From: a virus
Taxonomy: Duplodnaviria > Heunggongvirae > Uroviricota > Caudoviricetes
Virus record (IMG/VR): IMGVR_UViG_2529292829_000006
Length of the DNA stretch: 16,346 nucleotides
Reading direction: 5' to 3' (one strand)
Position numbers and translations under genes: made by a program. The notes beneath the pieces were generated by a model. The model saw only the letters and a program-made list of their open reading frames with translations, had not been told where the DNA came from and searched no databases. Positions 1,369-16,254 of the stretch are shown piece after piece (positions within the stretch are counted from its first letter, which is position 1; each line of letters starts with the position of its first letter).

Positions 1369-1444
1369 GCCGATATAGCTCAGTTGGTAGAGCAGCGCAT
1401 TCGTAATGCGAAGGTCGTAGGTTCGACTCCTATTATCGGCACCA
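1369..1444 (+). tRNA. thrW: tRNA-Thr (anticodon CGU), thrW-like; integration target of the downstream element
   Basis: 76-nt sequence GCCGATATAGCTCAGTTGGTAGAGCAGCGCATTCGTAATGCGAAGGTCGTAGGTTCGACTCCTATTATCGGCACCA; acceptor stem GCCGATA/TATCGGC, D-stem GCTC/GAGC, anticodon loop TTCGTAA (CGT), T-loop GGTTCGACTCC, 3' CCA. Confidence 0.9.
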
Positions 1445-1610: not shown

Positions 1611-2825
1611 GTGAAACTCAATGCCCGTCAAATAGACACTGCCAAGCCAAAAGAGAAGGCTTACAAGCTGGCTGATGGTGGTGGTCTGTATCTCTTGGTA
1701 AAACCTAGTGGAGGAAAATATTGGCGCTTCAAGTATCGTGTAGCTGGTAAAGAGAAGCTGTTAGCACTAGGTGTGTATCCTGAAGTTACCTTGGCTGATG
1801 CTCGTGCAAAACGTGAAGAAGCTAAAAGGGGTATCGCTGGGGGTATCGATCCGATGGAAGCGAAACGAGAGGAAAAGATTGCCCGGGAAACGCAGTTAAA
1901 CAACACCTTCAAAGATATTGCCCTTGAGTGGCACAGCAGCAAATTAAAAAAATGGTCTGCTGGTTATGCTTCAGACATCCTCGAAGCCTTCAACAAAGAT
2001 GTGTTCCCTTACATTGGCAAAAAACCAATCGCCGAAATCAAACCACTTGAACTGCTGAATGTGCTGCGGCGCATCGAGGGGCGCGGTGCTACCGAAAAAG
2101 CCAAAAAAGTGAGGCAGCGATGTGGGGAAGTTTTCCGCTATGCAATTGTCACTGGACGTGCTGAGTATAACCCTGCACCGGATCTCACCAGCGCGATGCA
2201 AGGTCATGAATCTAATCATTATCCTTTCCTCACAGCCAAAGAATTACCTGATTTTTTCAAGGCATTGTCCAGTTACTCAGGAAGTGCATTGGTTGTTATG
2301 GCGGCTCGTTTACTGATTATCACCGGTTTGCGGACTGGCGAACTGCGCGGGGCATTATGGGATGAAATCGATCTCAACAAGGCTATCTGGGAGATACCTG
2401 CTTCACGGATGAAAATGCGTCGCCCTCATGTAGTGCCTTTGTCTGAGCAGGCTCTTTCGCTTATTGGGCAGATTAAAGAACTAACTGGCAATTATCCGCT
2501 TATGTTTCCCGGCCGTAATGATCCAAGGAAAACAATGAGCGAGGCTAGCATAAACCAAGTATTTAAACGCATCGGCTATAACGGAAAGGTTACTGGTCAT
2601 GGCTTCCGGCACACTATGAGCACCATTTTGCATGAGCAGGGCTATAACACCGCGTGGATAGAGACACAGCTTGCGCACGTCGATAAAAACTCAATTCGTG
2701 GCACATACAACCATGCGCAATATCTGGATGGGCGGCGGGAAATGCTTCAGTGGTACGCTGATTATATGGATTCGCTCGAGCATGGCGGAAATGTGGTGCA
2801 TGGTGAGTTCGGAAAATGCGGGTGA
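1611..2825 (+). CDS. int: tyrosine-type site-specific integrase, P4-type
   Basis: 404-aa ORF with GTG start and GGAGG 9 nt upstream; N-terminus MKLNARQIDTAKPKEKAYKLADGGGLYLLVKPSGGKYWRFKYR typical of P4-family integrases; catalytic-region motifs LRTGELRG, HGFRHT and C-terminal Tyr region present. Confidence 0.9.
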   Translation: MKLNARQIDTAKPKEKAYKLADGGGLYLLVKPSGGKYWRFKYRVAGKEKLLALGVYPEVTLADARAKREEAKRGIAGGIDPMEAKREEKIARETQLNNTFKDIALEWHSSKLKKWSAGYASDILEAFNKDVFPYIGKKPIAEIKPLELLNVLRRIEGRGATEKAKKVRQRCGEVFRYAIVTGRAEYNPAPDLTSAMQGHESNHYPFLTAKELPDFFKALSSYSGSALVVMAARLLIITGLRTGELRGALWDEIDLNKAIWEIPASRMKMRRPHVVPLSEQALSLIGQIKELTGNYPLMFPGRNDPRKTMSEASINQVFKRIGYNGKVTGHGFRHTMSTILHEQGYNTAWIETQLAHVDKNSIRGTYNHAQYLDGRREMLQWYADYMDSLEHGGNVVHGEFGKCG

Positions 2826-4011: not shown

Positions 4012-4209
4012 ATGTCAAATACGCTTATTCGTTTAACAGAAGTTCAGCGTAGAACTGGATATAGCAAGGCATGGATTTATCGCCTTATGGGGCAAGGTAA
4101 ATTTCCTGCATCAGTTAAAATTGGCTCGCGAGCTATTGCTTTCGTTGAGAGTGAAATTGACGAGTGGATTAATCAGCGTATTGCGGAATCACGCGGAACA
4201 GCTACCTGA
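4012..4209 (+). CDS. alpA: AlpA-family phage/island transcriptional regulator (HTH)
   Basis: 65-aa protein with RLTEVQRRTGYSKAWIYRLMGQGKFP ... ESEIDEWINQR, the characteristic AlpA (CP4-57 regulatory protein) pattern; GAGG ribosome-binding site upstream. Confidence 0.85.
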   Translation: MSNTLIRLTEVQRRTGYSKAWIYRLMGQGKFPASVKIGSRAIAFVESEIDEWINQRIAESRGTAT

Positions 4210-4286: not shown

Positions 4287-5087
4287 ATGAAATTTCCAAA
4301 AATGCCCGTACAGGGGCGGGGCTTCGTTCGGCCTGAAAACCAGAATCTGCAAAATCTCGGCGAAATTATCCCGATTATTTCCGGCGTTATTGGCGGGAGT
4401 GAAACCAATATTGTTAGTGCCAGAGCGTTACATAAGGCGTTAGGTGTAGGGCGCGTTTTCCGTTCGTGGATCAAGGGGCGCATTGAAGAATACGGCTTCA
4501 CGGAAGGCGTGGATTATGAGGTTGTTGAATATTTGAGCCGACCCGATCCGGTGAGCGCAAAATCTCGCCAGCAAACAGCTCTTGAGTACATCATCACCGT
4601 GAACATGGCGAAAGAACTGGCGATGGTCGAACGTACCGAACAGGGCCGCGCCGTTCGCCAGTACTTTATCAAATGCGAGGAGGAGCTACACAAGGTTGCG
4701 CCTGTTCGTTCCGCAGCGTTACGCCGGGAACTGAAAGCCCGTATCACAGTTGCCAGCTACTTTAAGCCAATGTGTGCCGCGCTGGAGGCGTACCGGGCTG
4801 AACTGGGTAAAAACACACTCCAGCACCACTACACCACGGAAGCGAACATGCTGGCGCGTATCGTGCTGGGTGGCATGACTGCAAAACAGTGGGCACTGGC
4901 GAACGGCATTACAGGCGAACCACGCGACCACATGAGCACGTTGCAGCTTGAGCACCTTTCTTACCTTGAGCAGAGCAATATCACGCTGATTGAGTTAGGC
5001 CAGGACTACCACCAGCGGAAGGCTGAATTAATTCGTCTTTCGCAGCGTTGGTTAGCCCGTCGCATGGAGGAAAACAGCCATGTGTAA
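4287..5087 (+). CDS. phage antirepressor-like protein (AntA / KilA-C-type region)
   Basis: AGGAG 7 nt upstream of ATG; segment NIVSARALHKALGVGRVFRSWIKGRIEEYGFTEGVDYEV resembles antirepressor N-terminal domains, and TALEYIITVNMAKELAMVERTEQGRAVRQYFIKCEE resembles KilA-C/ANT regions. Assigned from memory of family patterns. Confidence 0.65.
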   Translation: MKFPKMPVQGRGFVRPENQNLQNLGEIIPIISGVIGGSETNIVSARALHKALGVGRVFRSWIKGRIEEYGFTEGVDYEVVEYLSRPDPVSAKSRQQTALEYIITVNMAKELAMVERTEQGRAVRQYFIKCEEELHKVAPVRSAALRRELKARITVASYFKPMCAALEAYRAELGKNTLQHHYTTEANMLARIVLGGMTAKQWALANGITGEPRDHMSTLQLEHLSYLEQSNITLIELGQDYHQRKAELIRLSQRWLARRMEENSHV

Positions 5088-5804
5088 CGCTCTGACCGTT
5101 ACAAAAAGAGAAAGCGCCCCGTTGCCGGAGCGCCTTTGTGAACGAATAGCCTACTGCGCCATATTGCTTACTGTCTACGAGGCAGATTATAGCGTTGTGG
5201 TCGCACAGAGTGAAGGCGCTGATCACCGTTACTACAGCACGCCAGAAATGCAGAATATTTTGCTGCAAAATGTCGTTGGTCACACTGTCCGGAAAGCAAA
5301 AAATTTTGCTGGTGGCGCGACTGATGCGATTTTGTCAGGTCGCCAGGTGCTGATCAATCTGATGTCTGATTTCGTTCTGGATAAAACAAAGGCGACCGCA
5401 GAGGGCCGCCAGTGGGAAAGCTACATACTTGAACGCATCGCCAACAATGCCAGATTTGCGGCTGGTGGGCAATGTGTCAGCTTTGCACCAATGACTCTAT
5501 GTTTAACTGAGGGTCATTATGGTGAATATGCTGGCTTGCTGGTGGGCTATTCCTGCTCTTTAACATTGCCATGCCGCGATGTTTTCCAGGTATGCGACCC
5601 CATTTTTGTGCGCCTGTACTCTTTAAGGAATTTCTCAAGGATAAACGCACAGGGCGCGAATCTGTTTGACTCATGCTCGTACGCTATCTTTCTGCGCTGT
5701 CTTTTCCGTGCCGGTGATGGTGTATTGGTTGATTTTTTGTTGGTCATGGCGCAGCCCTGTAAAACGATGCACCGTAGTTCCTCACACCACGGCGCTGGTG
5801 ATGG

Positions 5805-5984
5805 TTACTCCTGTTCTTTGGCCTTGCGGCGCTGGCGGTATTCAACTTCTCGCTTTAATGCTGCTGTTACAAACTGCCCTGTACTTTCACCAGGCATTTT
5901 TACCGCCTCAACATTGTTCATAACTTCATGCGGAACCCTTGCCGCAACTGTTTGTGATTTTGCGTTTACTGCTTTTGTCGCCAT
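5805..5984 (-). CDS. small (59 aa) basic protein, candidate ribbon-helix-helix (Arc-like) transcriptional regulator, divergent from the replication operon
   Basis: Hand translation of the minus strand: MATKAVNAKSQTVAARVPHEVMNNVEAVKMPGESTGQFVTAALKREVEYRQRRKAKEQE; SD AAGGGG 8 nt upstream of ATG; below the ORF-track length cutoff; operator-like palindromes lie immediately upstream. Confidence 0.5.
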   Translation of the reverse strand: MATKAVNAKSQTVAARVPHEVMNNVEAVKMPGESTGQFVTAALKREVEYRQRRKAKEQE

Positions 5985-6029
5985 GTTGTGTACCCCTTAC
6001 AAAAAACAAATGCAGTATGCAGGAAAAAA

Positions 6030-6110
6030 AATAAGTGTTCAACACTTGACGTGTTTAACACCTGGGCTTAAATTGGTGTTCAACACCTTGTTGATGCAAG
6101 GTGCAGAAAC
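6030..6110. promoter_or_regulatory. three copies of the palindrome GTGTT-N-AACAC (6035..6045, 6051..6061, 6076..6086) in the divergent intergenic region; candidate operator/promoter
   Basis: Read directly from sequence; lies between the minus-strand small gene (start 5984) and the plus-strand small-gene chain (start 6184). Confidence 0.5.
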
Positions 6111-6183
6111 GACAACGCCCCGCAGTGGTGGCACACATGCAGGGCGTCTAACCACCAACGATAGCAAGAGTATCGAGGTAGCT

Positions 6184-6387
6184 ATGAGAAATCATACCAC
6201 ACACCCGCAAGGGCGGGACTCGCACAACCTGAATAAATACATCTGGCGTTTTATCGCCCTGAGCACGGCACAACCGCGCGTAATTCACATCGAGGCCACC
6301 AGCGAACAGGAAGCACGCCAGCAATCTCCTGATGGCTGCGTGATGGTATTCGCCGCCCGTATTCGCCAGGAGGTGGAACATGTGTAA
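6184..6387 (+). CDS. small hypothetical protein (67 aa), first gene of a translationally coupled chain
   Basis: ATG at 6184 with GAGG upstream; MRNHTTHPQGRDSHNLNKYIWRFIALSTAQPRVIHIEATSEQEARQQSPDGCVMVFAARIRQEVEHV; stop overlaps the next start (ATGTGTAA). Confidence 0.45.
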   Translation: MRNHTTHPQGRDSHNLNKYIWRFIALSTAQPRVIHIEATSEQEARQQSPDGCVMVFAARIRQEVEHV

Positions 6388-6604
6388 TGCAACATGGCCT
6401 GATGCAGCGGTAGACGCTATCAAAACGCTGATGGATTCACTTATTGAGATTTCTGCTATCGCTGGTGTGGCGCATAAACACGCAGCCAGAGAATCAGAAT
6501 GCATCTCCCATTATTTAGCATTTGTGCAGCTAAAAGCCGATCAGGCACTGGATAAGGCCGGAAAAATTATCATGGCTGATGTGCAGGAGGTGCACCATGC
6601 ATAA
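6380..6604 (+). CDS. small hypothetical protein (74 aa)
   Basis: Start overlaps upstream stop (ATGTGTAA) and stop overlaps downstream start (ATGCATAA); protein-like composition. Confidence 0.5.
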   Translation: MCNATWPDAAVDAIKTLMDSLIEISAIAGVAHKHAARESECISHYLAFVQLKADQALDKAGKIIMADVQEVHHA

Positions 6605-7385: not shown

Positions 7386-7676
7386 ATGAAAAAGAAAAAT
7401 TCTGGCTTTACTGCCAGCGGCCTCTCTCGGCCTGAAATCCGCCCCGGTGATATTTTCCGGGACACCAGACGCGGGGGACGGGTGGTTATTCGTCACGTTA
7501 CGCCAGGCAATATCACCTACCGCCGTGAGGCTTACGAATATGACTGCGTAATGCCGCGCCGTCAGTTTGATCGTGATTTTATTGTGGTGGAAAACAAACA
7601 ACAGGCAGTGGCGAGACGTGCAGCCACGAATATTAAAAAAATCCGGGCAATGTTGGTTGCGGGAGGTAAGAAGTGA
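7386..7676 (+). CDS. small basic hypothetical protein (96 aa)
   Basis: Stop overlaps the GTG start of the primase/helicase gene (GTGA). Confidence 0.55.
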   Translation: MKKKNSGFTASGLSRPEIRPGDIFRDTRRGGRVVIRHVTPGNITYRREAYEYDCVMPRRQFDRDFIVVENKQQAVARRAATNIKKIRAMLVAGGKK

Positions 7677-9478
7677 AAAACGCACCGAGTCTAAAATATC
7701 AGCCGAAGGATAAATTCACTGAGGTAATCATTTTTGCCGGGATGGATGCTTACGCCCATGCTCAACACTGGATTGAAAGTGAAGGACGAAAACACGGCGA
7801 TAACGTGCCTCCTGTTTACCTGGGGCCAAAGCAACTGGCAGACCTGGCGAATATCCGCATTATTGACGAGAAACGCCGTTTTGCGCGTGTCTATATCGCG
7901 GGGGAGATAGAGCCAATCCAGATCAATACTATCGCTGAAAAGCTGGCGCTGGCTGGCGTACAGGAGGCGAAATTATACAAAGGTATCACCGACCAGGAAC
8001 CGGAGAACTGGCGCGACTACCTGCAACGGATCCGCGAACAGGCTGAGCACGGGGAAGTTTCAGTGATGAAATTAGCTACAAAAAATAGTGGTCTACCCAA
8101 GCCTGCATTAAATCAGATGGGAGCCAGCCAGAGAGGGGAAGTGTTACTTGAACATTATGGAGGAGCACTGGCGATAAATGATGATTCTGATGTAGTTCAC
8201 CATTACAACGGAATTGTTTGGGAGCCTGTATCTGATAAGGAACTCCAGCGGTCTATGGCGAAGATTTTTATTGATGCCGAAATTAGTTATTCGCAAAACG
8301 CCATTAAATTTGCCGTAGAGACAATGAAATTGAGTCTACCTGTTATGGGGGGAGCGGACAGAAATCTTATTGGGTTCAGTAACGGTGTTTTTGATATCAG
8401 GACAGGAAATTTTCGGGAACACAACAAAAATGACTGGTTGTTAAATGCCAGTGAATTACCGTTCAGCCCGCCAGAAGAGGGGGAAACGCTGGCAACACAT
8501 GCGCCGAATTTCTGGAAGTGGTTGCGTCGTTCGGTGGCGGATAATGCTCGTAAAGCGGATCGCGTACTGGCGGCATTATTCATGGTACTGGCGAACCGGT
8601 ACGACTGGCAGTTATTCCTTGAGGTAACGGGGCCGGGCGGAAGCGGTAAAAGTGTGATGGCGGAGATTTGTACCATGCTGGCGGGTAAGGCCAATACAGT
8701 ATCGGCGAGCATGAAGGCGCTGGAAGACGCGAGGGAACGAGCGTTAGTGGTGGGATATTCTCTGATTATCATGCCTGACATGACCCGCTACGCAGGTGAT
8801 GGTGCTGGGATTAAGGCCATTACAGGCGGTGACAAGGTGGCTATCGATCCGAAACACAAAGCGCCCTATTCCACGCGCGTTCCTGCGGTAGTGCTGGCAG
8901 TAAACAATTATGCCATGTCATTCAGCGACCGTAGTGGGGGGATCTCGCGTCGACGAGTAATATTTAATTTCTCTGAGGTTGTACCAGAGAACGAACGCGA
9001 TCCGATGCTGGCGAAAAAGATAGAAGGGGAACTGGCAGTAGTGATTCGCCATTTGCTTACACGATTTGCCGACCAGGACGAAGCGAAAAGACTACTTTAT
9101 GAGCAGCAAAAATCAGAAGAAGCACTGTTGATAAAGCGTGAAGGTGATTCGCTGGTGGACTTCTGCGGTTATCTGATGTCGTTGGTTAAATGTGAGGGAA
9201 TGATAGTAGGTAATGCAGAAATAGTGCCATTTAGTCCGAGGCGATATCTGTATCATGCTTATTTGGCTTATATGTCTGCGCATGGTCTGGGAAAACCGGT
9301 ATCACTGACACGCTTTGGTACAGATATGCCAGGGGCAATGGCTGAGTACGGAAAGGAGTACAAGCGGGCTAAATGCACTAAAGGTCCAGATAAAGGGCGA
9401 ACGATCACAAATGTTCTGTTAGATAAAGATGCTGATGGATGGTTACCAGCAACGGCAGGCATTAACGACAGAACATGA
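7673..9478 (+). CDS. phage/plasmid primase-helicase, P4-alpha-family C-terminal domain (island replication initiator)
   Basis: 601 aa; motif LIGFSNGVFDIRTGNFREHNKNDWLLNASELPF (D5-N / P4-family primase C-terminal signature) and P-loop LEVTGPGGSGKS; iteron array immediately downstream. Confidence 0.85.
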   Translation: MKNAPSLKYQPKDKFTEVIIFAGMDAYAHAQHWIESEGRKHGDNVPPVYLGPKQLADLANIRIIDEKRRFARVYIAGEIEPIQINTIAEKLALAGVQEAKLYKGITDQEPENWRDYLQRIREQAEHGEVSVMKLATKNSGLPKPALNQMGASQRGEVLLEHYGGALAINDDSDVVHHYNGIVWEPVSDKELQRSMAKIFIDAEISYSQNAIKFAVETMKLSLPVMGGADRNLIGFSNGVFDIRTGNFREHNKNDWLLNASELPFSPPEEGETLATHAPNFWKWLRRSVADNARKADRVLAALFMVLANRYDWQLFLEVTGPGGSGKSVMAEICTMLAGKANTVSASMKALEDARERALVVGYSLIIMPDMTRYAGDGAGIKAITGGDKVAIDPKHKAPYSTRVPAVVLAVNNYAMSFSDRSGGISRRRVIFNFSEVVPENERDPMLAKKIEGELAVVIRHLLTRFADQDEAKRLLYEQQKSEEALLIKREGDSLVDFCGYLMSLVKCEGMIVGNAEIVPFSPRRYLYHAYLAYMSAHGLGKPVSLTRFGTDMPGAMAEYGKEYKRAKCTKGPDKGRTITNVLLDKDADGWLPATAGINDRT

Positions 9479-9847: not shown

Positions 9848-10390
9848 ATGGGGCAAAGCATGACTAAGCTGACCATTAACAGAAAACCGAAAGGCATTTA
9901 CGGCACGCCGCAGAAAACGACGCAGGCGGCGCAGGAGCAGGATAAAACCACATCGGCGCATAAAGTGATGCCCGGTAACCAGAAAGCGCAGCAAAAGCCC
10001 ACAGGGGCGACACCGTGGCGGCATATGACCAAACGCCAGCGCAAAAACCGCAGGCGCGTTAACCGCCTCACTGAGTTGTGGCCTGACTTATTCAGCCGGG
10101 AAGCACCGAAGCCGCTTAAGGTGGGGATATTCGACGACCTGATGCAGGATCTCGCCGTCAGGGGGCTGGCATTCGGGCCAGGGGCATTGCGTGCGACGCT
10201 GGCATCTTATGCGCAGTGTCCGCACTATTACCGCGCCTTAATGGCTGGTGGGGTACGCTACGACCTGAAAGGCCAGCCGTGCGGCGAGGTGACACCACAG
10301 GAACAACAGGACGCAGAAACGCGGCTGGTGGCGCTGAATGAGAAGCGCAAACGCCAGCGCCGGGCAGCAAAGGAGACAATAGGCGCATGA
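9848..10390 (+). CDS. ProQ/FinO-family RNA-binding protein
   Basis: Segment RRVNRLTELWPDLFSREAPKPLKVGIFDDLMQDL matches the conserved FinO/ProQ domain pattern; an alternative start at the ATG 9860 is possible. Confidence 0.7.
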   Translation: MGQSMTKLTINRKPKGIYGTPQKTTQAAQEQDKTTSAHKVMPGNQKAQQKPTGATPWRHMTKRQRKNRRRVNRLTELWPDLFSREAPKPLKVGIFDDLMQDLAVRGLAFGPGALRATLASYAQCPHYYRALMAGGVRYDLKGQPCGEVTPQEQQDAETRLVALNEKRKRQRRAAKETIGA

Positions 10391-10632
10391 TTCACGACAG
10401 CAAAGCGGAAGCACTGGAAGCGCGTGGTCTGTACCGGAGAGCGGCGGCGCGGTGGGCTGAGGTCATCATGCTGGCGAATGATGACAAGGCACGGGAACAG
10501 GCGGCAAAACGTCGCGCGGAATGTATCCACAAGGCAGCACGCCCACCAGCAAGGCAGGATAATTTCGGGGGAGATGCGCGAAACCATCAGCCGGGCACAT
10601 GCCGGGATGGGATTACATCAGCCCAATGGTGA
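10387..10632 (+). CDS. PerC-family-like small transcriptional activator
   Basis: N-terminus MIHDSKAEALEARGLYRRAAARWAEVI resembles the PerC/Pch family signature (from memory); start overlaps upstream stop (ATGA). Confidence 0.5.
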   Translation: MIHDSKAEALEARGLYRRAAARWAEVIMLANDDKAREQAAKRRAECIHKAARPPARQDNFGGDARNHQPGTCRDGITSAQW

Positions 10633-10809
10633 GGCATTCAGGAAATACCAAAAAAAGAACAATTGTAGTCAGTAACAGAGGATGGGATTCTCTTGGTTTT
10701 TTGTTGATGCTTTCTGAGGAAATCTACTACGTTGCTGAGCAGATGAATATTCAATTGCATCTGGGTTCCTGATAAGATTAATCTGAATATTTTCATTTGG
10801 AATAGGGAT

Positions 10810-14285: not shown

Positions 14286-15281
14286 ATGGATACGAGAGTG
14301 GCGACGATAATCAAAAATATAGCAATCAAAGGTCTTTTTAAACGGAAGGACATTGATTGGAGTTTAAAAGATGTGAATGTTTTAGTGGGTAAAAATGGCT
14401 CAGGTAAGAGCACGATAATTCAAAGTGTTTTTGCCCTCTTAAAACAAGAATTAAATGAAAGTTTAAGTAATGCTGCGTTGGCTCAAATAACATTGGCCAA
14501 TGGAGGCACAATTACTCACAAAGTTAATTTTCGCGAAATTGACTCTGTCCAGCTTCTAAACCTACTTAATAACCTTAAGAAAAACAGTATTAAAGGTAAA
14601 TCAAAGGGTAAGGAAATAAAGGAGTTAAATGAACTTATTGAGTTGCTTGAATCGAAAAAAGAAGACACTGAAATTAAAGAGTTCGGGATGGGAACTGTTA
14701 GCGTAAGTGATAATATTAAAAACACTAAGCGAATAAATGTTGAGTTAATATCAACTATCAATATGAGTGCCAATTCCATCTATGAATTCAAAAAAAGTGA
14801 TGGTGAGCGCACCACAATTCTTGATATGGAAATTGCTGGTGAATTAGAAAGGTTAAAGAATACTTTCAAAGTAAGTGAGTCTAAAGGTATTCTCATAAAG
14901 GATAAGTTGGAATCAGCTATAAATAATTTATTTGCTGAATGTAACAAAGTTGTTTCTTTTAGTAATGGTAACATTTCTATTAAGATGAGTGATTCTGGTG
15001 AAGATATTAGGTATAATCTTCTTTCATCAGGTGAACGTCAGTTGTTATATATTCTGATTAAAACAGCTAATACTTCATTGGATGAATCTGTCTTGTTGAT
15101 GGATGAGCCAGAAATATCCTTGCACCTTACGTGGCAAGAAAGATTAATAAGCACCATCAAATCAATTAACGATAATTGTCAGTTAATTATTGTTACTCAT
15201 AGTCCTGCAATATTAATGAAAGGCTGGATGGATTCTTTCGTAGATATAAAAAATATTTCAAAGGAATCTTCTCATGACTGA
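14286..15281 (+). CDS. ABC-type ATPase (AAA_15/AAA_21-like, OLD/AriA-like), first gene of a candidate anti-phage pair
   Basis: Walker A VGKNGSGKST, ABC signature LSSGERQ, Walker B VLLMDEPE, H-loop IIVTHSP; AT-rich; possible TATAAT at about 14261; an alternative GTG start at 14298 is possible. Confidence 0.85.
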   Translation: MDTRVATIIKNIAIKGLFKRKDIDWSLKDVNVLVGKNGSGKSTIIQSVFALLKQELNESLSNAALAQITLANGGTITHKVNFREIDSVQLLNLLNNLKKNSIKGKSKGKEIKELNELIELLESKKEDTEIKEFGMGTVSVSDNIKNTKRINVELISTINMSANSIYEFKKSDGERTTILDMEIAGELERLKNTFKVSESKGILIKDKLESAINNLFAECNKVVSFSNGNISIKMSDSGEDIRYNLLSSGERQLLYILIKTANTSLDESVLLMDEPEISLHLTWQERLISTIKSINDNCQLIIVTHSPAILMKGWMDSFVDIKNISKESSHD

Positions 15282-16254
15282 GTTTGAGGATATTAATTTT
15301 AGCGAAGAATATCTTCAGGTATATTGTATTATGGCTGGACACAATGGCTTTGTCTTTGTTGAAGGTCTAAAAGACATTTCTTTCTGGGAAGGCTTATTAA
15401 ACGATAAAGATAATGATATACGTTTTGATATTTGTAACCCTACCAATAAAGGAACAAAAGGGAAACCAGTATTAAAAAAATTCATGAGCCGAGCAAATCG
15501 ATATGCCATATTTGCAATGGATAGTGATTTTGATTATTTATGCCCTAAAAACAGTACAGACTCAGAGATAATTTGCAGTAACAAGTTTATTTTTCAAACA
15601 TTTGTATATTCAAAAGAGAGCATCGAGTTACACCATGAAGTCCTTGAGTATTGTCTTTCTCAAATAAAGATCGCTACTGAAATTAAATTCGATTTTACAG
15701 CATACATTACAGAGTATTCACGGTTGATCTACCCCGTGCTGAAGAAATTTTTATTGCTTAAACAGCATCAAGTTAGACTTGATGACTCAGTTTTCCATGA
15801 AGCGATTGCTCCTTCTGTGCCACGATTAACGAACCAATTTGTTATCAAAAATGCTGTATTTGAAAGTATGCAGCAATCTAAAGCGGTTATTGAAGAAAAA
15901 CTTGATAACCTTATTCAAGATGAATACGATGCTGATAAATTCTATGAGCAGTTATATGATAAAGGATTGAGAGAAGATAACGCCTATCAATATATCAATG
16001 GTCATTTTTTAGCTGATAGAGTTGTCATGCCTGTCATAAAATCATTGATAGAGCAATTGAATATTAATGAAACTGCCTTAATAGTCAAACAATGCAAAGA
16101 TAAACCAACCTTAATCTCGGAAAGAAAGAGTGAGCTAAAAAATATTCTTGAAACTGATTTGAATATTAATACGCTATTACACTGTTGCAAAGAAAAGTTC
16201 AAAACTCCTTGTGCTATTGCGATCAAAGAAAATGTAGCTCGAGCTTTAGCATGA
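15274..16254 (+). CDS. TOPRIM-like (DUF4435-type) putative nuclease, OLD/AriB-like effector candidate
   Basis: 8-nt overlap with the ATPase gene (ATGACTGA); N-terminal FVFVEGLKD (conserved Glu) and AIFAMDSDFDY (DxD) in TOPRIM-like spacing; AT-rich. Confidence 0.75.
   Translation: MTEFEDINFSEEYLQVYCIMAGHNGFVFVEGLKDISFWEGLLNDKDNDIRFDICNPTNKGTKGKPVLKKFMSRANRYAIFAMDSDFDYLCPKNSTDSEIICSNKFIFQTFVYSKESIELHHEVLEYCLSQIKIATEIKFDFTAYITEYSRLIYPVLKKFLLLKQHQVRLDDSVFHEAIAPSVPRLTNQFVIKNAVFESMQQSKAVIEEKLDNLIQDEYDADKFYEQLYDKGLREDNAYQYINGHFLADRVVMPVIKSLIEQLNINETALIVKQCKDKPTLISERKSELKNILETDLNINTLLHCCKEKFKTPCAIAIKENVARALA

Follow-up and report, generated by a model that had tools for sequence, protein, structure and literature searches.

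The 16,346-nt stretch of viral DNA IMGVR_UViG_2529292829_000006 (the window, by which we mean the whole stretch at its full length) is a phage satellite of the Gram-negative phage-inducible chromosomal island (PICI) type, which is integrated at a tRNA-Thr gene and shows the gene order int, alpA, antA, control module, replication operon. The control module includes a minus-strand gene for a 59-amino acid (aa) protein of the YlcI/YnfO family. Comparison with related loci suggests that this protein is probably a ribbon-helix-helix (RHH)-type repressor matched to operators on the promoter of the replication operon, with specificities that have diversified among islands. A divergent repressor and operator of this type, controlling replication of the island, had been proposed from the letters of the window alone (hereafter the sequence-only reading), and the proposal is now supported by co-variation of the protein with the sites, by three of three correct site predictions, and by the placement of the sites on promoters.

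Co-variation of the small protein with palindromes on two predicted promoters

The three copies of GTGTT-N-AACAC noticed upstream of the small gene are the only exact matches to GTGTTNAACAC in the 16.3-kb window, in which 0.03 matches are expected and in which none of 200 shuffles reached three. With one mismatch permitted, still the same three palindromes and no more are found. All three (the predicted operators O1, O2 and O3; coordinates of all features are given in Table 2) are located on promoters. As the sequence-only reading stated, the region faces a plus-strand operon that ends in the primase gene; this operon leads from the Icd-like gene at 6184 via a DUF4222 gene to the primase gene (7673-9478).

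We compared about 40 loci, comprising 31 from genome contigs, others retrieved to represent individual variants of the protein, and EcCICFT073 as the model island. Every locus contains three, sometimes four, copies of a palindrome or quasi-palindrome of 11-13 bp upstream of the small gene, and the sequence of this repeat tracks residues 11-15 of the protein, the predicted beta-strand: there are 11 classes (Table 1), and all copies of a locus change together. Linkage by itself would not account for three separate copies that always change in concert; a trans-acting reader is required. The two CTGG classes differ in the N-terminal arm of the protein too, which fits an arm that reads the flanks of the site.

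Table 1. Residues 11-15 of the small protein and the palindrome found upstream of its gene
Residues 11-15	Palindrome	Occurrence
QT[VLI]AA	GTGTTnAACAC	E. coli, Edwardsiella, Pectobacterium, Kosakonia, Klebsiella (five genera)
QSVTA	GTGTCTTACAC	
Q[SA]LK[SA]	GTGTGGCCCAC	Dryocola, Yokenella, EcCICFT073
[KR]KLEA	GTGTCAGCCAC	E. coli, Pectobacterium, about ten Xenorhabdus species
QK[VL]Q[AT]	GTGGAnTCCAC	
KRFDV	GTGTCGGACAC	
QKTSV	GTGnnGGACAC	
QQLNA	GTGAATCGCAC	
QKMSA	CTGGCACCCAG	
QKIQA	CTGGATKCCAG	
AQKKI (distant)	GTGCACCCCCAC	Klebsiella

Three site predictions were made from the protein alone, before the DNA was inspected, and all three were confirmed. The variant P0044 (KKLEA) was predicted to be accompanied by GTGTCAGCCAC, the variant P0033 from Klebsiella (QTIAA, 64% identical) by GTGTTnAACAC, and the variant P0027, which combines a C-terminal half identical to that of the window protein with another N-terminus, by sites different from those of the window. 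Overall similarity is not predictive, as a 60% identical protein (locus L004) goes with the site of the window and a 75% identical one (L033) with another site. A three-way DNA alignment of the window, L033 and EcCICFT073 shows an Icd-like gene and a 3' leader that are nearly identical in all three. The window and L033 also agree fully in the C-terminal half of the small gene; each of the three has its own version of the N-terminal 31 codons, of both promoters and of the operators. In addition, modules residing in the same genome differ in class, both in the tandem islands of L018 and in two loci of Xenorhabdus mauleonii. The second module of L018 (Pectobacterium betavasculorum; 10565-10747, about 4.5 kb away) encodes the variant SQQLNARF and has its own three sites GTGAATCGCAC.

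It is improbable that the palindromes are read by another factor, be it AlpA, the Icd-like protein, a replication initiator using them as iterons, or a host protein. Experiments have established AlpA alone as a regulator of such islands, the models phrog_6196 and phrog_1743 label Icd-like proteins 'transcriptional repressor', and replication proteins of the P4 type bind repeated short sites. However, the Icd-like protein remains constant across the three site classes represented by the window, L033 and EcCICFT073, and AlpA identity is uncoupled from site class, as AlpA is 94-95% identical between EcCICFT073 and the loci L035 and L036 despite differing sites and only 22-29% identical between loci with matching sites. 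Likewise, a single site class occurs with four types of replication protein (DUF927, AAA_25+HDPD, AAA_25, D5_N), and a host factor cannot explain 11 classes in one bacterial order and two in one genome. As the site class follows none of these proteins, the iteron, AlpA and Icd-like binder readings were rejected.

The placement of the sites is in line with a role of the 59-aa protein as a repressor. When the loci are aligned on the -35 box of the predicted rightward promoter P_R, nearly every locus shows TTGAC[G], a site in the spacer, a TAnnnT box and a second site over the predicted start; the position of O2 is kept in nearly all of 29 aligned loci. In most relatives the -10 box of the predicted leftward promoter P_L, which precedes the small gene, reads TATACT and is directly followed by the third site. 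The predicted start of P_R is supported by the hairpin at the 5' end of the predicted transcript, since this hairpin is kept in relatives despite its different sequences there. Judged from the sequence, such a geometry would correspond to steric repression of the replication operon combined with autoregulation.

That the protein binds the sites as an activator, as an architectural factor or as a centromere binder similar to ParG or omega seems quite improbable. ParG and omega are RHH proteins that recognize short repeats arranged in arrays and serve in partition as well as in regulation, and five members of the protein family studied here show a weak match to CB_ParB_C; yet there are only three sites, each on a promoter, spacer and +1 sites represent the classic geometry of steric repression, and no gene for a ParA-type ATPase is adjacent.

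Family and predicted fold of the 59-aa protein

The translation of the minus-strand open reading frame (ORF) at 5805-5984, MATKAVNAKSQTVAARVPHEVMNNVEAVKMPGESTGQFVTAALKREVEYRQRRKAKEQE, is exactly the one quoted in the sequence-only reading, and the strong Shine-Dalgarno (SD) sequence reported there is the AAGGGG 8 nt before the ATG; a purine run similar to an SD sequence is found at the equivalent place in the relatives. The gene is not unannotated, as had been assumed, but is listed in RefSeq as WP_000201462.1, 'YlcI/YnfO family protein', with no function attached. The protein matches the NCBIfam model NF041551 with 59.7 bits (cut-off 30; E 2e-16), residues 9-50 corresponding to model positions 1-42 of 42, and phrog_949 with an E value of 5e-22. 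Its 74 homologues belong to the Enterobacterales without exception. The YlcI/YnfO-type family is narrow, given that a full hidden Markov model (HMM) scan of 1.84 billion representative proteins yielded only 81 clusters at 50% identity. A tblastn search for homologues in P4 and other phages gave one weak match only, in a 16.5-kb induced element, and none in P4. The window protein has no match to Pfam DUF3950 (PF13132) at E <= 1; a distant island relative (L029) passes this model with 29.9 bits (threshold 25). No functional study of YlcI/YnfO or DUF3950 proteins was found in the searchable literature, which covers few subscription journals, and a survey of 2026 lists the YlcI/YnfO protein merely as 'prophage-associated protein'.

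On the basis of its sequence and of structure prediction, the protein probably adopts an RHH fold. In the family alignment M1-A-T, N7, K9-S10, R16, H19, G32-E-S34, Q37-F38, E46 and R50 are invariant and T35 is nearly so, residues 11-15 are hypervariable, and variable and hydrophobic residues alternate through residue 17. The order of elements is that of RHH proteins, i.e. a strand-helix-turn-helix pattern with a G-x-S/T turn ahead of the second helix, and an AlphaFold2 monomer model contains helices at residues 19-28 and 35-58 with a predicted local distance difference test score (pLDDT) above 90. By hhalign, residues 9-31 align with low probability to residues 6-28 of Arc, placing T12, A14 and R16 on Arc Q9, N11 and R13, which are the base-contacting residues of Arc. 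One distant family member scores exactly at the gathering score of Pfam RHH_1, the closest structural match of the window protein is the RHH antitoxin TacA2, and a distant relative shows a weak match to TacA1. The RHH-like composition noted in the sequence-only reading is thus accompanied by the strand-helix-turn-helix pattern of the Arc/MetJ/CopG superfamily.

Taken together, we consider it probable that the 59-aa protein is an RHH-type repressor matched to the operators on the promoter of the replication operon. The protein would act as a dimer, with one dimer per 11-13-bp palindrome; a beta-ribbon formed by residues ~11-17 would read the centre of the palindrome, and invariant parts of the protein would read the GTG/CAC flanks. 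Occupied O2 (in the spacer) and O3 (at +1) would block RNA polymerase at P_R and thereby keep the operon from the Icd-like gene to the primase gene off while the island is integrated, and O1 on the -35 box of P_L would provide autoregulation. The N-terminal third of the protein and the operators would be swapped together as a cassette, and this exchange may have given rise to at least 11 specificity ('immunity') classes among the islands.

Several observations weigh against this interpretation. The window protein has no match to Pfam RHH models even at E <= 1, no match in a sequence search of PDB, and no significant match by Foldseek. The monomer model does not contain the N-terminal strand, residues 1-18 being of low confidence, which is however expected because an RHH strand would pair only in the dimer. 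Part of the co-variation could be plain linkage, since fewer than 110 bp separate the N-terminus of the protein from the operators. The spacings of 16 bp (O1-O2) and 25 bp (O2-O3) correspond to no simple helical phase, and in the class of the window the site after the -10 box of P_L is missing, its place being taken by the extra full site O1 on the -35 box (a site of this type is likewise present in L002, L004, L038 and L039). Furthermore, AlpA is the route of induction in published work, and so far no experiment calls for a repressor. The analysis directly shows the small gene, the sites with their co-variation and promoter positions, the open frame, and the strand on which protein-coding selection acts; DNA binding, repression and the read-through switch discussed below are what we infer from sequence comparison.

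A stop-free plus-strand frame across the control module

A further layer, overlooked in the sequence-only reading, is the plus-strand ORF at 5080-6387, which runs antisense through both minus-strand genes and then across the operators, the promoters and the leader. Many GenBank records annotate this frame as a 435-aa 'host cell division inhibitor Icd-like protein', whereas RefSeq gives a 67-aa Icd-like protein and two antisense small genes; the annotations conflict because of the stop-free antisense frame. Of 26 loci, 24 have one plus-strand frame that lacks stops over the whole small gene as well as the intergenic region. The stop-free run extends over 128-443 codons in 25 of the 26 (L008 included) and finishes either with the stop codon of the first gene of the operon or shortly ahead of the ATG of that gene. 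In about 15 of 24 loci an in-frame ATG adjoins or overlaps the stop codon of a same-strand gene located upstream. When the small gene was resampled synonymously, its antisense frame was stop-free with a probability of 0.02-0.47 per locus (observed in 23 of 23 loci). For the intergenic region of 190 nt, dinucleotide shuffling gave a stop-free frame with a probability of 0.005-0.048 per locus (observed in 18 of 23 loci). The other two intergenic frames contain 2-12 stops.

Nevertheless, the minus-strand gene is the frame under protein-coding selection. The minus and plus frames share third codon positions, and substitutions at minus-strand codon positions 1, 2 and 3 number 2603, 1573 and 5082, position 2 being the least variable; a coding plus frame would have position 2 more variable than position 1. 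Amino acid identity is 0.643 in the minus frame and 0.575 in the plus frame, and the mean BLOSUM62 score per site is 3.32 versus 2.58. The sequence-only reading had regarded a plus-strand protein spanning this region in relatives as evidence against the small gene. A spanning plus-strand ORF does exist in relatives, yet it does not refute the small gene because the substitution patterns favour the minus frame.

It is therefore very improbable that the true gene encodes the 435-aa plus-strand protein, with the 59-aa ORF as its antisense shadow and the palindromes within coding sequence. The openness of the plus frame far above chance and its annotation in many GenBank records speak for such a gene. 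The codon-position counts, however, make the plus frame atypical for coding, its translation over the segment is rich in Cys and has no family match, and the resemblance among the long ORFs is limited to their antisense, intergenic and Icd-like portions, their N-terminal parts showing no relationship from locus to locus. The minus-strand ORF, in contrast, has a conserved ATG, SD sequence and length and passes a curated family model, and L038, L039 and L008 retain the 59-aa gene together with its operators but lack the long frame. The two readings are in fact compatible, as translation of the frame may take place even if the product is of no importance.

The N-terminal 155 aa of the long ORF in the window have no Pfam or PHROG match and no match among phage records by tblastn. 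A Bro- or Eta-like N-terminal domain was rejected in view of these negative searches and the missing conservation among loci. The approximately 460 bp at 5088-5546 hold no RefSeq gene on either strand, only the N-terminal part of the long frame, with the minus-strand terminator (5410-5391) inside.

The plus frame thus seems to be under selection to stay translatable, at least in the segment of the module. For Gram-negative PICIs no repressor is known, AlpA is an activator of downstream genes, and AlpA alone induces EcCICFT073, an island for which helper phage-dependent induction, replication and packaging have been shown (PMC6092414). By analogy with the eta/kil arrangement of P4, transcripts driven by AlpA from upstream might be translated straight through the module, and this read-through might bypass the repressed P_R, unfold the hairpins of the leader and reach the replication genes; it might also oppose the convergently transcribed repressor gene. 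We propose this second layer only tentatively. It would reconcile a repressor with the induction of EcCICFT073 by AlpA alone (PMC6092414). A point against it is that the read-through layer is not obligatory, as L008 and L038 keep the module without the open frame.

In its widest form, our proposal is that the YlcI/YnfO protein could be the missing master repressor of Gram-negative PICIs, that it exists in at least 11 heteroimmune classes, and that the antisense frame is kept translatable solely for AlpA-driven traffic of ribosomes and RNA polymerase over the module, the whole forming a two-state switch; in this form the proposal is possible rather than probable. In one state the repressor would silence the internal promoter, and in the other read-through from the alpA side would bypass this promoter and, through convergent transcription, silence the gene of the repressor; induction by helper phages would consist in tipping the switch. 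The stop-free antisense frame suggests how activation by AlpA and repression could be wired together. If this is true, it would represent an unusual and clearly documented case of a frame maintained for translation, and not for its product, across a functional antisense gene and promoters.

Island context and neighbouring features

The window is 100% identical to E. coli chromosomes that carry the island at tRNA-Thr beside proA. It shows the layout of Gram-negative PICIs, with int, alpA and primase genes in the same orientation and a specific attachment site, and its gene order matches that of EcCICFT073. The latter has the same module, i.e. alpA, a minus-strand small ORF, the minus-strand YlcI/YnfO gene, the Icd-like gene and, later, the primase gene. 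Its small genes bear late-issued locus tags (C_RS30120 and neighbours) and therefore were probably absent from the annotation used for the published work on this island. Among 5426 complete E. coli genomes, DNA resembling this region occurs in 1386, and relatives with the same small gene include capsid-forming PICIs with capsid, decoration and terminase genes.

Table 2. Features of the island in the window, in order of position
Feature	Position	Strand	Basis and remarks
tRNA-Thr	1369-1441		Attachment site
Integrase	1611-2825		
AlpA-family regulator	4012..4209	+	Pfam Phage_AlpA, E 2e-19; upstream of the long frame, same strand
AntA/AntB-type protein	4287..5087	+	Pfam AntA, E 2.5e-23; stop codon overlaps start of long frame
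Long stop-free frame, 435 codons	5080..6387	+	ATG overlaps AntA stop (ATGTGTAA); ends at Icd-like stop
Intrinsic-terminator-like site	5391..5410	-	Strong; closes the minus-strand unit
Accessory basic protein, 66 aa	5547..5747	-	phrog_21027, E 5e-32, full length; RefSeq WP_071607143.1; downstream of RHH-like gene, same frame
Terminator-like hairpin	5769..5795	-	Directly after stop codon of RHH-like gene; conserved in L033 and EcCICFT073
YlcI/YnfO-family RHH-like protein, 59 aa, candidate repressor	5805..5984	-	ATG start; NF041551, phrog_949
Shine-Dalgarno sequence AAGGGG	5993..5998	-	8 nt before ATG of 59-aa gene; read from sequence
Predicted leftward promoter P_L	6014..6042	-	TTGAAC (6042-6037), 17 nt, CATACT (6019-6014); precedes RHH-like gene
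Predicted operator O1, GTGTTCAACAC	6035..6045		15-bp palindrome AAGTGTTcAACACTT; abuts -35 of P_R, covers -35 of P_L
Predicted rightward promoter P_R	6046..6074	+	TTGACG (6046-6051), 17 nt, TAAATT (6069-6074); consensus scan
Predicted operator O2, GTGTTTAACAC	6051..6061		In spacer of P_R; shares last base of -35
Predicted operator O3, GTGTTCAACAC	6076..6086		13-bp palindrome GGTGTTcAACACC; directly after -10, over predicted start
Hairpin CACCTTG-N6-CAAGGTG	6084..6103	+	Inverted repeat; predicted 5' end (first 20 nt) of P_R transcript
Structured leader	6115..6175	+	Hairpin 1 (6115-6147), tail TCTAACCACCAACG (6147-6160), hairpin 2 (6159-6175); alignment
Icd-like protein, 67 aa	6184..6387	+	NF033153, E 4e-20; RefSeq; first gene of replication operon, in frame with long frame
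D5_N/DUF5906/Pox_D5 primase-helicase	7673..9478	+	Last gene of operon behind P_R

The second minus-strand ORF, whose reality was doubted in the sequence-only reading, is probably real in view of its phrog_21027 match, its RefSeq annotation and a 65% identical copy in EcCICFT073. The least probable of the alternatives is that the 59-aa and 66-aa proteins form a type II toxin-antitoxin pair with an RHH antitoxin and merely autoregulatory palindromes: the structural match to TacA2, the weak TacA1 match of a distant relative and the small basic ORF next on the same strand would fit such a pair, but the partner gene is not conserved (it occurs in just 5 of about 40 loci, while the RHH-like gene and the operators persist), no toxin or defence model recognizes the 66-aa protein, a terminator-like hairpin lies between the two genes, and in nearly all loci two of the three sites lie on the spacer and +1 of the opposite promoter P_R. 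A Chi site, GCTGGTGG (5538-5545), which is also kept in L033 and EcCICFT073, is located just beyond the stop of the 66-aa gene, and a copy matching Chi at 7 of 8 positions, GCTGGTGA (5794-5801), is located just beyond the stop of the 59-aa gene. The two proteins share a KEQE end, and the DNA around both stops is similar. These Chi-like sites and similar stop regions may mark recombination joints of an exchangeable cassette.

The leader of the Icd-like operon is found at the same position in L002-L041. Pairing reaches 89% in hairpin 1, where 9 of 10 pairs show double-sided changes, and 94% in hairpin 2, compared with 0.2-0.5 in shifted-partner controls, the counts leaning towards the chosen structure because it was picked by eye. 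Between the two hairpins lies the near-invariant tail TCTAACCACAACG. In most relatives the SD sequence is situated in the loop of hairpin 2; in the window the SD sequence GAGG (6175-6178) follows directly after the stem, the last base of the stem being the first of the SD sequence. The leader has no match in Rfam and may represent a new cis-regulatory RNA. A ProQ/FinO-family protein (9848-10390) is encoded on the same island. A pairing of the loop GUGGUGG with a downstream CCACCA, resembling seqB/seqA of P4, was dropped as the complementarity is not kept in relatives. Searches with Rfam detected no RNA of the C4, isrK or CI type at E <= 10 in 5300-6500 and none at gathering score in 12 related loci; the sole intergenic Rfam match, R1162 antisense RNA (E 6.7), was treated as chance.

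Other genes of the island include a PerC-family regulator gene (10387-10675), which is frameshifted according to RefSeq, with overlapping ORFs at 10387-10632 and 10424-10675 in the window. Repression of the locus of enterocyte effacement (LEE) has been reported for a PerC-like protein of another E. coli PICI (PMC11773190). Near its right-hand end the island carries a defence system, as indicated by PADLOC matches of two adjacent genes to the PARIS proteins AriA (14286-15281, E 3e-43) and AriB (15274-16254, E 4e-22). The Rfam int-alpA RNA motif RF02996 is present directly after the integrase gene (2870-2937; 45.5 bits, gathering score 35.8) and also in L003, L005, L007 and L022.

Comparison with known systems

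Gram-negative and capsid-forming PICIs occur widely, transfer from species to species and bring along defence systems (PARIS in the present case), and the candidate repressor would fill the place of the missing repressor of Gram-negative PICIs. The analysis provides a concrete candidate together with exact sites, natural specificity variants and a module in the model island EcCICFT073, and the set of variants is a ready collection of small, orthogonal candidate repressor-operator pairs. RHH repressor-operator pairs and the nested-gene logic of P4 are each of an already known kind. In the searchable literature, which lacks most subscription journals, we found no account of their combination or of a role of the YlcI/YnfO branch, and none of 11 co-varying classes or of a stop-free frame over a functional antisense gene.

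Of the two models for proteins known from the lambdoid prophages DLP12 and Qin, YlcI/YnfO (NF041551) and DUF3950, only the former recognizes the window protein. With Arc and Mnt of P22 immI and with CopG of pMV158 it shares its very small size (these proteins fall within a range of 53-83 aa), an N-terminal strand with alternating variable and hydrophobic residues, two helices with a G-x-S/T turn, short palindromic or pseudopalindromic operators over promoter elements, and likely autoregulation. In contrast to these repressors, it belongs to a narrow family with no significant sequence or profile match to them, has three separate sites of 11-13 bp instead of one tetramer operator of 17-21 bp, and is encoded antisense within a long open frame.

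The Stl proteins of Gram-positive islands are larger and of the helix-turn-helix type, so that homology to the 59-aa protein would not be expected. Place and logic of the Stl/Rpr repressors of Staphylococcus aureus pathogenicity islands (SaPIs) and other Gram-positive PICIs are nevertheless the same as proposed here, with a repressor gene divergent from the excision and replication operon in the interval between integrase and primase (PMC6092414). The demonstrated trigger in Gram-negative PICIs, however, is the activator AlpA.

According to the summary of the P4 mechanism in PMC10111431, ORF eta follows the alpA homologue vis, holds the constitutive promoter PLE and the immunity RNA, and is nested in frame with kil, and translation of eta from upstream transcripts overrides immunity-specific termination. 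The window resembles P4 in having a long ORF after an alpA-like gene, with an internal promoter (here predicted by consensus) and a structured leader, and in the in-frame arrangement of this ORF with a short first gene of the replication operon, an Icd-like or cell division inhibitor gene. The nested arrangement of P4 is thus found here, and a CI/C4-type immunity RNA is not. In contrast to P4, which has no homologue of the 59-aa protein, immunity of the island appears to be protein-based, the candidate repressor gene itself lies antisense inside the long frame, and the conserved leader structure is a different one.

From the immunity regions of lambdoid phages, whose repressor-operator cassettes define heteroimmune groups, the module differs in protein fold, size and promoter layout. 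The likeness to these regions lies in the exchange of the recognition part of the putative repressor and its operators as a cassette between near-identical flanks, in the many specificity classes, and in the fact that co-resident elements differ in class.

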